From the IMG/VR virus record IMGVR_UViG_2534682255_000016: 4,003 bases of DNA; one strand, 5' to 3'. Below the pieces are notes generated by a model. It searched no databases. It saw only the letters and a program-made list of their open reading frames with translations, and was not told the DNA's origin. Origin of the DNA: a virus. Lineage: Duplodnaviria; Heunggongvirae; Uroviricota; Caudoviricetes. Positions within the stretch are counted from its first letter, which is position 1; each line of letters begins with the position of its first letter. The position numbers and the translations under genes were made by a program. This document shows, in pieces, positions 455 through 3,993 of this stretch.

Positions 455-2116
455 TTATATGAAAAAAACCGCATATTCTTTCTTTTTCGGTTCCGGGTTA
501 AGGGACATCAGGGAGACCGCATTGAACAGCGCCATCAGCGGGTCAATTTTTCCCCGTCCACTGGCCTGTTTGGTGATAAGAATGGCGTTACCTTTAGGCT
601 CCACCCGGGCATTGCCGACACACCAGGCCATCAGGGGCTGGTCACCATGCACCAGCACCCCTTCAGCCAGTTTGCGCTCGGTGGTTTTAATGGCCCCGCC
701 CAGTTTCCAGCCCTGGCTTATCCCCACCACAATTCCGTCGGGGATCCCGGCTTCCGCCAGTGAATCCAGAATCTGCCCCACACCTGACGGGTCAATACCG
801 ATATGATCCAGTAACTCAGCCTCATGAATACGACGCACATACTCCGCCACTTCCGCCGTGTCATCCCCGACCCGACGGACAATCGTCATGTCTCCACAGG
901 CCACAAAATCCTGAAAACGGGATGCCTCACTCTTCCGTCTGACCACCGCGGTTTCATGCGCCCAGGCATGGCCCCAGCCCAGCCATTCGCGGGTCTCCCG
1001 GTCACGCCCAATCACATACATCCCCAGCAGATCATCCAGCCCTCCGCCGTCAATCCCCACCGTCACCACATCAGCACGACGCAGGATATCGTCCAGGCTG
1101 ATACAACGGCCCTGCTCTTCCCAGAAATCAGCCCCCGCCCAGCGGTCAGAGCGCAGGGCAAGACCAATTTCCACATTGGCGTGTTTTGACATGAACCCCC
1201 GGAATGTCTCTTCACCGGCTTCCCGGGCTTTACGGTACTCCCGGTACAGAAAAGCCTCATCCACCGAATAACCGAGATTCGGATTGACCATGGCGAGGTT
1301 TTCCATCAGCAGGTGAGCCCCGCTTTCCACCATTTCAGGAGGGTGTTCAAATATCACCGGCAGAAAATGCGGATCATGAATTTTGCCGTCACGGACATCC
1401 CGGGCGTACTGCAGTTTCTGTCTGAACACCCCGGCTGGCGGCTCATTCGACTGGGTGGTCGTATACACCACAAACCCTTCCGGGCGGGAGGCAAGGCCGC
1501 CTATGGCTTCACGTAACATGTCCTCCGCTTTGTACTGCTTGCCAAATAACCACAGTTCATCAATCAGCGTCCCCACGGACTTGATACCGGATACCGTATT
1601 CGGATCGGCAGCCACCACCTTAAGGGTGGTGTCCGTCACCCTGTGGGTGATGGTCCGGATATGTGTCTGCACCTGACAGAGGTCATCCAGATCATCGTCC
1701 CGTCGTACCATATCCCTGGCAGGGTTGAAGGCGTTAGCCGCCACCTCCACGGTCGGGGCCAGAATGGTGTAGCCCGCCGCCTGCCGCCAGTTCAGTAACA
1801 GCGCCGTCATCATGATCCCCGCGGCCAGCGTGGACTTACTGTTTTTCTTGGGGATAAGGATAAACACTTCCTTGATATGGCGAACACCGGTCTGCGCATC
1901 GTAGGAGCCAAACAGGGCCGCCACCAGGTCAAACACCCACGGTGCACAGGACTCCCCGAATGTCGGGCTACCCGGTGCATCCACAATTCGCAGTTGTTTA
2001 AAAATCGCCAGGGCATGTGCAGCCTGGTCCGGATAAATCGGAGCCGGAATAATCGACAGCCCCTTTTTCAGGCGCTCTGCCCAGTCCGGACATGCCGTGC
2101 TCCATACAGGTATCAT
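455..2116 (-). CDS. terL: Phage terminase large subunit (TerL), Terminase_1/HK97-like family
   Basis: 553-aa ORF. The N-terminal half has a P-loop-like ILIPKKNSKSTLAAGI (compare PRKNGKST in this family). The C-terminal half has a nuclease-domain-like VVTVGIDGGGLDDLLGMYVIGR. Size is typical for TerL. ATG at 2116..2114 is preceded by GAGGAAAG and overlaps the TerS stop as ATGA. Confidence 0.9.
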   Translation of the reverse strand: MIPVWSTACPDWAERLKKGLSIIPAPIYPDQAAHALAIFKQLRIVDAPGSPTFGESCAPWVFDLVAALFGSYDAQTGVRHIKEVFILIPKKNSKSTLAAGIMMTALLLNWRQAAGYTILAPTVEVAANAFNPARDMVRRDDDLDDLCQVQTHIRTITHRVTDTTLKVVAADPNTVSGIKSVGTLIDELWLFGKQYKAEDMLREAIGGLASRPEGFVVYTTTQSNEPPAGVFRQKLQYARDVRDGKIHDPHFLPVIFEHPPEMVESGAHLLMENLAMVNPNLGYSVDEAFLYREYRKAREAGEETFRGFMSKHANVEIGLALRSDRWAGADFWEEQGRCISLDDILRRADVVTVGIDGGGLDDLLGMYVIGRDRETREWLGWGHAWAHETAVVRRKSEASRFQDFVACGDMTIVRRVGDDTAEVAEYVRRIHEAELLDHIGIDPSGVGQILDSLAEAGIPDGIVVGISQGWKLGGAIKTTERKLAEGVLVHGDQPLMAWCVGNARVEPKGNAILITKQASGRGKIDPLMALFNAVSLMSLNPEPKKKEYAVFFI

Positions 2117-2676
2117 CCGCTTTCCTCATTCTGGTTATTCACCACCAGCCGGGGAGGTGGTGGCACCGCAAAACGGTTAGCCGCTTTTTTCGCGGCATCA
2201 CCTTTTGCCGATTTTTTACCGGCATCGCCTTTTTTATGGTGTGTGAACTGCGCCAGTCGCCAGGCCGCATCCAGTGCCAGTTTCGGGTCAATTATCAGGT
2301 TTTCCACCAGGATCTGCCCCATCGCTTTCACCGGATCGGGAAGACCATCCTCCATATATTCAATACCATGAGATATCACCGCGGGCGGAGGCATCTCCGG
2401 ATTTTTTTCGTCCGGCTGTGGTATTGCAGCCACCTCACGGCGACGGGGTTTATCCTCCTGCTCTGATTTTTTCTGCCGGTAAACAGGAACCTCATCCACC
2501 TCCACCGTCTCGCATTGTTTACGGGCTATAAACGCAAGCACCTCAGGATCTTTTGCCAGCTGCGAGCCTTTAACCCTGGCGGTCTTCGCCGAATAACCGG
2601 CGGCAATGGCTGACGCTGTTTTGTTTTTCCCGGACATGAGCGCCAGCGCAAATTTTCGTTTTTGCGTTGTCAGCAC
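2113..2676 (-). CDS. terS: Phage terminase small subunit (TerS), P27/Terminase_2-like family
   Basis: 187-aa ORF. The N-terminus LTTQKRKFALALMSGKNKTASAIAAGYSAKTARVKGSQL matches the conserved helix-turn-helix region of P27-type small terminase subunits (..KQ..F..EYL...N.TQAAI.AGYS.KTA). The start codon is GTG (2676..2674), checked by hand, with a strong SD GGGAGGAGG at 2687..2679. It sits immediately upstream of TerL and overlaps it by 4 nt. The C-terminus is K/A/G-rich followed by PPPP. Confidence 0.85.
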   Translation of the reverse strand: MLTTQKRKFALALMSGKNKTASAIAAGYSAKTARVKGSQLAKDPEVLAFIARKQCETVEVDEVPVYRQKKSEQEDKPRRREVAAIPQPDEKNPEMPPPAVISHGIEYMEDGLPDPVKAMGQILVENLIIDPKLALDAAWRLAQFTHHKKGDAGKKSAKGDAAKKAANRFAVPPPPRLVVNNQNEESG

Positions 2677-2965
2677 AGCCTCCTCCCGGGTCCAGAACGC
2701 ACTCAGCCGGGTATGGTTCAGCCCATTTTTCCCGGCGTCTCATGCCGCAAATGTTAACTGCTGCCTGGTTAACATTTGCTGAAAAAGCCTGTTAACATTT
2801 TTTCCGCACAACAAACTGAATAATAAAGATAAAAACCGCAAAAATGCCCGGGCAGCCAGTTAACATGTTAACTGCCCTGAAACGGGAATTTTTTCTCTGC
2901 GTGAGAGGGGGCGCGGTGTCCAGGGCGATCGTTTTTTTTCGCCGGATGATCCCCCCCGGGTCTGG
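2677..2965. other. Candidate cos region (cosB-like repeat cluster plus GC-rich cosN candidate) between HNH and TerS
   Basis: 289-bp non-coding gap lying between an HNH endonuclease gene and the small terminase gene, which is where cos sits in HK97-like phages. It contains five GTTAAC-core palindromic repeats (2749..2875), an A-tract-rich stretch (2811..2845) and a GC-rich block with homopolymer runs (about 2895..2960). This is a functional inference; the nick site is not identified. Confidence 0.4.
2749..2875. repeat. Cluster of five GTTAAC-core palindromic repeats (AAATGTTAAC / GTTAACATTT / ATGTTAACTGC variants)
   Basis: GTTAAC occurs at 2753..2758, 2768..2773, 2791..2796, 2859..2864 and 2867..2872. 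I found no other GTTAAC in the 4003-bp window. AAATGTTAAC (2749..2758) and GTTAACATTT (2768..2777, 2791..2800) are inverted copies of each other. ATGTTAACTGC is repeated exactly at 2751..2761 and 2865..2875. CAGTTAACATGTTAACTG at 2857..2874 is an 18-bp perfect palindrome. Confidence 0.8.
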
Positions 2966-3331
2966 TCACAGGCCAGTGATTCCGTCGGCCCTGAGCGTGC
3001 CATCAGGAAGCTCAGGCAACGTCGGATCAGGCATACCACTCGCCGCTTCACTCGCTGACTTCTGGCGATGGCATTCAGTACAGAGGGTCCAGAGGTTCGT
3101 CTCCTCATTACCACCACCGAACTGAAGTGCAATGCGGTGATCGAGTTCACTGTCACAAAGGTCAACCACACGACCACAGAGACAACAGTGTCCGGCATCC
3201 CTCCGCCAGATACGACGTTTGAGGGAAACCCGGGCACTGCCACTGACACGACGCTGTTCCCCCCTCAGGACATTTATCCGCCGGGTGTTCAGAGTTTTGA
3301 TTCTGCCCGGTAACGTACGAAGCACAGCCAT
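2966..3331 (-). CDS. HNH endonuclease (phage packaging-associated HNH, zinc-binding)
   Basis: 121-aa ORF with the HNH motif: HCCLCG (C-x2-C), ELDHRIAL (catalytic D-H), NEETNLWTLCTECHRQK (N...C-x2-C-H). ATG at 3331..3329 is preceded by GAGGA 7 nt upstream. Its position immediately upstream of TerS is typical of HK97-like cos phages. Confidence 0.85.
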   Translation of the reverse strand: MAVLRTLPGRIKTLNTRRINVLRGEQRRVSGSARVSLKRRIWRRDAGHCCLCGRVVDLCDSELDHRIALQFGGGNEETNLWTLCTECHRQKSASEAASGMPDPTLPELPDGTLRADGITGL

Positions 3332-3372: not shown

Positions 3373-3597
3373 ATGTCATCGAAAAACCGGCCCCGCAGAA
3401 CAACAACCCGCAACATCCGATTTCCAAACCAGATGATTGAACAAATTAACATCGCTCTTGATCAGAAAGGTTCAGGAAATTTTTCAGCGTGGGTTATTGA
3501 AGCCTGCAGAAGAAGATTAATTAATGAAAAACATGCTCAATTTGTACCCAACAAAGACAAACACGACCAGAGCACCTGTTCAGACAGGTTTACTTAA
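3373..3597 (+). CDS. Small ribbon-helix-helix-like DNA-binding protein, resembling the YlcI/DUF3950 family of lambdoid prophages (family recalled from memory, not verified)
   Basis: 74-aa ORF with a basic N-terminus (KNRPRRTTTR), then a predicted beta-strand RNIRFPNQMI and two helices EQINIALDQKG / NFSAWVIEACRRRL, the usual RHH arrangement. SD AGAGGA lies 7 nt upstream of the ATG. Two 60-nt stretches hand-counted in 3421..3540 are about 37% GC, clearly lower than the terminase genes. A hairpin terminator follows 19 nt after the stop. Confidence 0.7.
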   Translation: MSSKNRPRRTTTRNIRFPNQMIEQINIALDQKGSGNFSAWVIEACRRRLINEKHAQFVPNKDKHDQSTCSDRFT

Positions 3598-3678: not shown

Positions 3679-3993
3679 TTAGCATTTTTTTGACCGCGCG
3701 TTTCCGGACGTATTCTGTTCTCCTGTCCCTTTATATCGTCGGAATACCCGCCGCTCTTCAAATCCCATTCCCAACTCAGAATGTAGTCTGTTGACCGCTT
3801 GTTTTATTTCGGTCAGGTTCATCGGTGAAACCGGAGTCCGGCGCGCCTTACGCAAACACTCTGCTCGTTTCTGTGCCGCCACTTTTCTTTTCTGGTCATC
3901 ACTTAGCTGTACCATCACTTTTGCCCATCGTTCAGCTGCTCTCCGGTACAGTCCTTTTTTCTCCAGACATTCTGCCAGGTGATCATGTAGCAT
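3679..3993 (-). CDS. PerC-family (Pch-like) transcriptional regulator, prophage-borne
   Basis: 104-aa ORF. The N-terminal motif LAECLEKKGLYRRAAERWAKVM matches the PerC-family signature (..AE.LE.KG.WRRAA.RW..VM) as I recall it from PerC/Pch proteins. ATG at 3993..3991 is preceded by GAGG with a 6-nt spacer. Only 3 codons lie upstream before the window edge, so a longer N-terminus cannot be excluded. Confidence 0.65.
   Translation of the reverse strand: MLHDHLAECLEKKGLYRRAAERWAKVMVQLSDDQKRKVAAQKRAECLRKARRTPVSPMNLTEIKQAVNRLHSELGMGFEERRVFRRYKGTGEQNTSGNARSKKC

Follow-up and report, generated by a model that had tools for sequence, protein, structure and literature searches.

Phage HK97 has a 10-nt 3′ overhang, an HNH endonuclease that stimulates cleavage, and a small terminase (TerS) site downstream of the nick (Juhala 2000; Kala 2014; Chechik 2024, PMC11331095). 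Virions of the Shiga toxin 1 (Stx1) phage Lys8385Vzw have been sequenced, and PhageTerm placed this phage in the cos (cohesive-end site) class with 3′ cohesive ends, giving CGCCCCCCCT at the genome end (Zhang et al. 2021, PMC7946995). Here we examine the 289-bp non-coding gap between the HNH endonuclease gene and the TerS gene in a 4003-bp stretch of IMG/VR virus record IMGVR_UViG_2534682255_000016 (the window, meaning the whole stretch analyzed), which is part of a lambdoid Stx-type prophage of E. coli. We consider it highly probable that this gap, at 2677-2965, is the cohesive-end packaging site of a D3/HK97-type 3′-cos phage, with a set of TTAAC motifs as its putative TerS sites. A cos between HNH and TerS is what specialists would expect and the cohesive end of this lineage is already published; the TTAAC dyad and array, their uncoupling from the TerS start and their retention in islands that have no terminase appear to be undescribed in the literature searched.

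The minus strand of the window carries all of the packaging genes in the order HNH, TerS, large terminase (TerL) and the start of a prohead protease/capsid fusion gene, with HNH being the final gene before the right genome end:

2966..3331, minus strand: HNH endonuclease gene, 366 nt, 121 amino acids (open reading frame (ORF); Pfam HNH PF01844, E 1.3e-6; annotated as HNH endonuclease in NC_049945)
2113..2676, minus strand: TerS, 187 amino acids (Pfam Terminase_2 PF03592, E 1.8e-8, residues 2-57)
455..2116, minus strand: TerL, 553 amino acids (Pfam TerL_ATPase PF03354 and TerL_nuclease PF20441)

These ORFs define the gap exactly as an earlier sequence-only reading had drawn it (2677..2965), and the ORFs that cross it are short (58 amino acids or fewer) and unsupported. 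HK97 and D3 are laid out in the same HNH-cos-TerS order, and TerL falls in the family of 3′-cos phages by its Pfam domains, by its match to D3 TerL (21% identity, BLASTP E 9e-13) and by its 98% amino acid identity to TerL of Lys8385Vzw. A query of 451 bp that covers the gap and the adjoining gene ends (2600-3050) was 99.8% identical to the Stx2-converting phage Stx2a_WGPS6 and matched 93 phage records at 94-99% identity, including YYZ-2008, BP-4795, 2851, 1717 and many Stx1a/Stx2c phages.

The genome ends can be placed by homology, as the gap of Lys8385Vzw is 97.9% identical to that of the window. The Lys8385Vzw record (MT225100) ends ...GATCGCTCCGGACACCGCCCCCCCT, 59 nt past the HNH gene, and starts CTCACGCAGAGAAAAAATTCCCGTTTCAGGGCAGTTAACATGTTAACTGG..., and at the same place the minus strand of the window reads ...GATCGCCCTGGACACCGCGCCCCCT / CTCACGCAGAGAAAAAATTCCCGTTTCAGGGCAGTTAACATGTTAACTGG..., where the slash marks the junction. 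Likewise, the Lys8385Vzw junction ...GGACACCGCCCCCCCT / CTCACGCAGAGAAAAAATTCCC... aligns base for base with ...GGACACCGCGCCCCCT / CTCACGCAGAGAAAAAATTCCC... in the window. Because this junction aligns, and the gap and TerL are 97.9% and 98% identical, the homologous cohesive end is CGCGCCCCCT at 2906-2915. This 10-mer is identical to the Lys8385Vzw overhang at nine of ten positions (CGCGCCCCCT and CGCCCCCCCT, respectively) with identical flanks, and both variants are seen among relatives. The sequence-only reading had proposed a cos region in this gap with termini inside 2890..2965, and both proposals hold in that the homologue of the PhageTerm-typed end, placed by homology, maps there. The right end of Pseudomonas phage D3, a classical 3′-cos phage, is GGACACCGCGCCCCCA and stops at the same base as GGACACCGCGCCCCCT of the window, and the D3 record (NC_002484) ends ...AGGACACCGCGCCCCCA, identical to the window at 15/15 positions. 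The linear record of Xanthomonas phage DMF5-T1, whose TerL is 59.5% identical to that of the window, ends ...CCGGACA and starts CGCATTCGTAGAAAATTTTCCC; these ends correspond to both nick positions, with about 10-11 nt absent between them. They fit a 3′ cos, since loss of the overhang is expected in library preparation and PhageTerm describes very low coverage over a 3′ overhang. The predicted nicks are between 2906 and 2905 on the minus strand and at about 2916 and 2915 on the plus strand, with an uncertainty of about 1 nt, and the elements around them are as follows:

2906..2915, minus strand: predicted 10-nt 3′ cohesive end CGCGCCCCCT (homology to the Lys8385Vzw PhageTerm end, the D3 record end and the DMF5-T1 record ends)
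2951..2957, minus strand: G7 run (G-run), 46-52 nt upstream of the top-strand nick (invariant G columns in alignment A1)
2897..2930, minus strand: conserved cos core GATCGCCCTGGACACCGCGCCCCCTCTCACGCAG (alignment A1; 15-nt exact match to the D3 right end)
2884..2898, minus strand: A-tract box (A-box) AGAGAAAAAATTCCC, +8..+22 from the nick (kept with the TerL/HNH type whatever the TerS type)

Two other records were set aside as evidence for the ends: the arbitrary start of the Burkholderia phage vB_PL2a record falls inside the A-box and is no genome end, and OR845833, an unverified contig of 1.5 kb, is uninformative. A second paper on Lys8385Vzw has nothing on termini. TerS proteins of the Terminase_2 type are best known from pac phages (SPP1, SF6), which would suit headful packaging from a pac site, or a defective prophage in which the site is not used as cos in this strain. 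However, the near-identical phage Lys8385Vzw is typed COS(3′) (PMC7946995), the TerL family includes D3, the core is conserved and none of the HNH, TerS and TerL ORFs is disrupted, so that we find this explanation highly improbable and continue with a cohesive-end site.

Alignment A1 shows the G-run, core and A-box to be conserved throughout Enterobacteriaceae, and they are likewise kept in Burkholderiales, Pseudomonas and other relatives among the Proteobacteria. The G-run is kept in all relatives, from beta- and gammaproteobacterial loci to the right ends of D3 and HK97 and to islands resembling phage-inducible chromosomal islands (PICIs); an 18-mer of the core, CTGGACACCGCGCCCCCT, occurs in 73 IMG/VR contigs; and the A-box is present in DMF5-T1 and in loci that have no homologue of the TerS N-terminus. 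Since the G-run and A-box travel with TerL/HNH and not with TerS, we assign them to the cleavage or termination complex, in which the G-run is possibly a cosQ-like or cleavage-complex element. The sequence-only reading had described a GC-rich block followed by an A-tract segment. The A-tract segment is real, being the A-box itself at 2884-2898, and a GC-rich block is present, but at 62% GC in 2890-2965 against 54% for the window it is only moderately so and has an A8 run inside it. A 13-nt stretch at 2726-2738 repeats the A-box and might reflect a partial duplication, but a match of this length is within chance.

Beyond the A-box lies a repeat array, given here with distances from the nick:

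2857..2874: palindrome CAGTTAACATGTTAACTG, +32..+49, candidate primary TerS recognition site (homologue of the start-codon dyad of relatives)
2799..2856: AT-rich spacer with T/A tracts and a GC content of about 0.3, possibly bendable DNA (composition; phage and PICI-like islands diverge here)
2791..2798, minus strand: third ATGTTAAC motif, with GTTAAC from +110 (motif count, shuffles, island conservation)
2747..2779: perfect 12-nt inverted repeat GCAAATGTTAAC-N9-GTTAACATTTGC, holding motifs 4 and 5 (motifs kept in the islands L114 and L174)

GTTAAC occurs five times in the 4003-bp window and all five copies are in 2753-2872, whereas dinucleotide shuffling of the gap (5000 rounds) gave 0.05 copies on average and never more than 2. 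The cluster of short palindromes noted from the letters is real. Each copy is part of the same 8-mer, ATGTTAAC, and allowing one mismatch or fewer gives 8 matches against 1.9 expected, a count reached by none of 200 shuffles. The motifs start at +34, +42, +110, +133 and +148 from the nick. From the nick to TerS, a stretch of 229 nt, eight relatives are 97-100% identical, compared to 87-92% for HNH, 92-97% for TerS and 95-96% for TerL, and thus the gap DNA is better conserved than the genes that flank it. Together with the comparisons below, this backs the earlier suggestion that 2749-2875 holds cosB-like TerS sites, and we infer that the ATGTTAAC/TTAAC motifs are the recognition site of TerS.

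A TerL scan using one genome per species gave 80 related prophage loci in Enterobacterales, Burkholderiales, Pseudomonas, Xanthomonadales and others, where the HNH-TerS gap is usually about 100-175 nt. These loci share a plan consisting of the G-run about 45-50 nt before the nick, GGA(C/A)ACCGC..., the nick, an A-tract box at about +8..+22 (consensus ...CACGC.(A/G)GA(A/T)6-8CCC), a ribosome-binding site (RBS) and a dyad. In proteobacterial relatives the dyad is TGTTAA-N4/5-TTAACA at about +33..+50 and normally straddles the TerS start codon. Phages of the E. coli Stx lineage keep the dyad equally far from the nick but have lost its RBS and ORF, and added DNA holds three more copies of ATGTTAAC; TerS starts 190 nt further on with GTG CTG ACA, which is without TTAAC.

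The presence of the dyad follows the type of TerS. GTTAA-N2-7-TTAAC was found in 37 of the 47 loci with a homologue of the TerS N-terminus and in 1 of the 29 without (Fisher 4e-11, computed ignoring shared ancestry), and the loci without this homologue still keep the core and A-box. The N-terminus is a helix-turn-helix of the SF6/SPP1 type and homologous to that of G1P, as a profile of 13 homologues (A2) matches the structures 4zc3, 3zqp and 2cmp with E values of 2e-4 to 6e-4. In many relatives (e.g., L038, L042, L029 and L034) homology covers just the C-terminal third of TerS (about residues 100-180); the differing N-terminal DNA-binding domain looks like a domain swap that retained the TerL-facing part, and those loci are without the dyad. 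Codon choice at the TerS start keeps the coding half of the dyad: the N-terminal Leu codon is TTA in 37/43 loci compared to 1.9% of Leu codons in the adjacent TerL genes, and the Thr codon is ACA in 33/43 compared to 12%. TerS has been displaced independently in the window and in Paraburkholderia silviterrae (L020), and in both the dyad stays at cos with the start codon or RBS destroyed. The relocated TerS start of L020 encodes MALTGKKRAF with GCG CTG ACC replacing GCT TTA ACA, and the Leu2 codon of TerS in the window is CTG, not TTA. At L020 (2219-2500) the dyad is GTTAAaggggTTTAAC, beside cos with both ATG and RBS destroyed, and is followed by about 110 extra nt with two more GTTAAAG; TerS restarts with GTG GCG CTG ACC and its MALT N-terminus is unchanged.

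The same cos is found in PICI-like islands that have no terminase, namely IMG/VR loci L114, L166 and L171 and an island of E. coli 042 between yljB and clpS. These islands keep the G-run, core, A-box and all five copies of ATGTTAAC without HNH, TerS or TerL. Their motif offsets are +34, +42, +110, +134 and +149, the same spacing as in the window to within 1 nt. When an island is compared to the window, 38 of 38 motif columns are identical as opposed to 60 of 97 others (hypergeometric P 4e-7), and non-motif columns from the dyad onward, including the spacer, are 62% identical to L114. The islands are likely satellites of the window's phage family. They are about 10-11 kb in size with cos at the right edge (about 3393-12821 in L174, from E. 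coli 042, NZ_CP042934, and 1-10960 in L114), and their gene order is integrase, helix-turn-helix protein, Icd-like protein, RepA/D5 primase-helicase, SSB, capsid gene and cos. The capsid gene is a fusion of protease and major capsid protein in strain 042, and in L114 there is a lambda E-like major capsid protein with a gpD-like protein; L114 also encodes a PerC-like protein. Cos of the island type is present in about 50 complete E. coli genomes.

Island conservation bears on two other explanations of the array. The first takes the ATGTTAAC copies to be relics without function, left by repeated recombination at the 5′ end of TerS when the gene was replaced. The dyad does look like a former TerS start, in that the RBS GGAGG has decayed to CAGGG and no ORF follows ATGTTAAC, and motif 3 reads ATGTTAACAGG, resembling the TerS start of Citrobacter relatives. 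However, five intact motifs with the same spacing and orientation, in islands with spacers only 62% identical, are hard to reconcile with relics, as are the perfect 12-nt inverted repeat formed by two of the copies and a motif region conserved above its flanking genes; we think relics improbable. The second explanation, that the dyad or array chiefly regulates TerS expression as an operator or as mRNA structure over the start codon and is no packaging signal, draws on the dyad covering the TerS start codon in most relatives, where binding would also block translation or transcription. In the window and L020, though, the dyad is 110-190 nt from the true TerS start with its distance from the nick fixed, and the islands retain it without a TerS gene. 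Folding the sense transcript 2905..2677 as RNA showed nothing out of the ordinary (z −1.5, not significant). A chiefly regulatory role is thus quite improbable in our view. Scans of the gap for promoters and terminators gave no sense-strand promoter, no terminator and one weak antisense promoter-like match, and an Rfam scan of the gap matched no family.

Setting these aside, the assignment of TerS binding to the TTAAC motifs still has one main rival, which accepts the site as cos and has TerS bind the A-box (+8..+22) as in HK97, leaving ATGTTAAC as sites for host or other phage proteins or as architectural DNA. We consider this unlikely. In its favour, the HK97 TerS site is a 15-bp A-tract at +15..+29 (PMC11331095), so the A-box could be the TerS site, and the A-box does not vary among all the relatives or in the PICI-like islands. 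Arguing the other way, loci with an unrelated or replaced N-terminal domain of TerS still have the A-box but not the dyad, and the same holds for DMF5-T1 and D3; moreover, HK97 TerS belongs to another family, having no Pfam match as opposed to Terminase_2 for TerS of the window. Along with the HK97 precedent, several points weigh against our interpretation of the gap as a 3′-cos with TTAAC motifs as TerS sites. The PhageTerm report on Lys8385Vzw is a single sentence with odd coordinates ('50,977-50,953'), and the DMF5-T1 record ends are presumed to be physical ends. HNH has no BLASTP similarity to HK97 gp74, and its cleavage role is therefore assumed from gene position and family. Part of the covariation of dyad and TerS is trivial, since the dyad is half coding and has its 5′ half linked to the TerS gene, and the centre-to-centre motif spacings of 8, 68, 23 and 15 bp follow no simple helical phasing. 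For this prophage itself, both the ends and the binding of the motifs are proposed from homology and comparison.

Taking the gap as a 3′-cos with TTAAC motifs read by TerS, packaging may proceed as follows, with every step beyond the homology-mapped ends being what we would infer. TerL and HNH would cut the concatemer in a staggered manner around CGCGCCCCCT on the minus strand (2906-2915), leaving 10-nt 3′ overhangs, and after the cut HNH would lie at the right genome end, with the A-box, repeat array and TerS at the left end, which would be packaged first. The cleavage module would consist of the G-run (2951-2957), the core GGACACCGCGCCCCCTCTCACGC and the A-box (+8..+22), moving with TerL and HNH. 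Rings of TerS could hold the TTAAC motifs left of the nick through outward-facing helix-turn-helix domains, with the AT-rich spacer perhaps permitting wrapping, and bound TerS would then place TerL and HNH on the core. Packaging would run from the TerS-proximal end until the next cos is recognized and cut for termination. The presumed ancestral state would be a single dyad, at about +33..+50, that overlaps the start codon of TerS; in the E. coli lineage the TerS start would have shifted 190 bp downstream while the dyad stayed, and motifs at +110, +133 and +148 would have been gained. A broader proposal, which to us has an even chance of being correct, is that the dyad or array is the sequence-specific site (cosB) of an SF6-type TerS in a very widespread proteobacterial 3′-cos family; its ancestral overlap with the start codon could let one binding event couple packaging recognition to TerS autoregulation. 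This coupling would have been lost at least twice, and the site would have been expanded to five copies in the E. coli Stx-phage lineage and copied by terminase-less islands as a means of hijacking these phages. If true, this would give a tractable system for the debated question of how a ring-shaped helix-turn-helix TerS reads DNA.

Of 5426 complete E. coli genomes, 1277 carry the gap, some in as many as 7 copies, and none has it annotated. This cos sets the virion genome ends for a family of prophages that includes many Stx1, Stx2a and Stx2c converting phages and that about a quarter of complete E. coli genomes carry, often with several copies per cell. Cos is annotated in none of the 94 related GenBank phage records inspected, and a cos feature is absent from BP-4795, phi330, WGPS6, JLK-2012, PPompW and EH1846; the position of the site permits prophage and virion maps to be oriented correctly. 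Since several co-resident prophages share one cos, they could be cross-packaged, and the shared cos explains how one packaging machinery can serve co-resident prophages, some of which are without HNH, and PICI-like islands. In the PPompW prophages (L096, PPompW_132418, LC567822; 1046-2504) cos, TerS and TerL are intact but the lysis genes and HNH are absent, and the IS110-family element ISEc20 separates the Q/tRNA region from the cos region; such prophages would need HNH in trans from a co-resident relative. In JLK-2012 (L094, NC_049942; 2135-2665) HNH is annotated at 531 nt as opposed to 366 nt and runs into the cos region, which suggests a lost stop codon or a frameshift. The site is also a defined target for cos-plasmid transduction assays and PhageTerm-style checks, and the repeat array, as a testable candidate TerS recognition site, is a modest addition to a known cos.

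The remainder of the gap and the neighbouring genes hold a few further features. TerS starts with GTG, preceded by the Shine-Dalgarno sequence GGGAGGAGG at 2679-2687, which ends the following element:

2677..2746, minus strand: leader, 70 nt, ending in the Shine-Dalgarno sequence GGGAGGAGG (2679-2687) (relatives 99-100% identical)

This leader keeps its 99-100% identity in eight relatives despite 3-8% divergence of the TerS gene, and only its Shine-Dalgarno part is explained. The TerS stop and TerL start share 4 nt (ATGA) at 2113-2116, as is usual for translationally coupled genes. A DUF3950 gene (3373-3597, plus strand) and a homologue of PerC-family transcriptional activators (3679-3993, minus strand; Pfam E 2e-44) are located between the lysis region and HNH.

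In comparison to known systems, the sequence-only reading had likened the gap to lambda cos, and this holds for the order of its parts: both have a termination-side element, a nick site, repeated candidate TerS sites with bendable DNA and the TerS gene, in that order. In lambda the overhang is 5′ and 12 nt long, the terminase is Nu1/gpA, HNH is absent, and there are an integration host factor (IHF) site I1 and R sites in cosB. The likeness fails for the type of overhang, IHF and the TerS family, as the window has a predicted 3′ overhang of 10 nt, a TerS of the SF6/SPP1-type Terminase_2 family and not Nu1, and a TerL of the HK97/D3 type. The IHF consensus WATCAANNNNTTR had no match with one mismatch or fewer in 2677-2965, where weaker or non-consensus sites could remain. 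Lys8385Vzw shares the phage lineage, the HNH-cos-TerS layout and a 3′ 10-mer at the homologous position, and differs at one base of the 10-mer; its paper gives the end sequence only, without flanking elements or repeats (PMC7946995).

D3 carries HNH at its right end and TerS 36 nt in from its left end, with a G-rich run upstream and the right end GGACACCGCGCCCCC, of which 15 nt are identical to the window. Its TerL is of the same family but only 21% identical, its 3′ overhang is reported as 9 nt, it has no TTAAC dyad, and BLASTP found no similarity between its TerS and that of the window. HK97 likewise has HNH right and TerS left, a G-run that precedes the end by about 45 nt and, immediately after the nick, an A/T tract, and differs in its single 15-bp TerS site at +15..+29, in having no TTAAC array and in its TerS family; its HNH and TerS have no detectable similarity to the proteins of the window. 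The right ends of HK97 (L006, 780-833) and D3 (L010, 970-1027) have a G-run followed by TCAAAACCTT in common. These features hint at common ancestry of the HK97, D3 and window 3′-cos sites, although TerL identity is about 21%. A direct alignment of the HK97 gap shared only GGGGGGGATCA (z 1.8, not significant) and was kept as a lead, not as evidence.

TerS of SPP1 and SF6 (G1P) shares a homologous N-terminal helix-turn-helix with TerS of the window, and in SPP1 the pacL and pacR sites contain several binding boxes flanked by bendable DNA. These phages package by headful from pac, whereas the window's family would have fixed 3′ cohesive ends and an HNH partner. Lastly, Gram-negative PICIs with a helper-like cos and a capsid gene are of a known kind, and the model ones use a lambda/80-type cos (Fillol-Salom 2018/2019; PMC10111431). 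The island at 939312-948740 of E. coli 042 resembles them in having int, replication genes, a capsid gene, cos at the right edge and no terminase; what sets these islands apart is that they bear the D3/HK97-type cos of the window, including its five-motif array.

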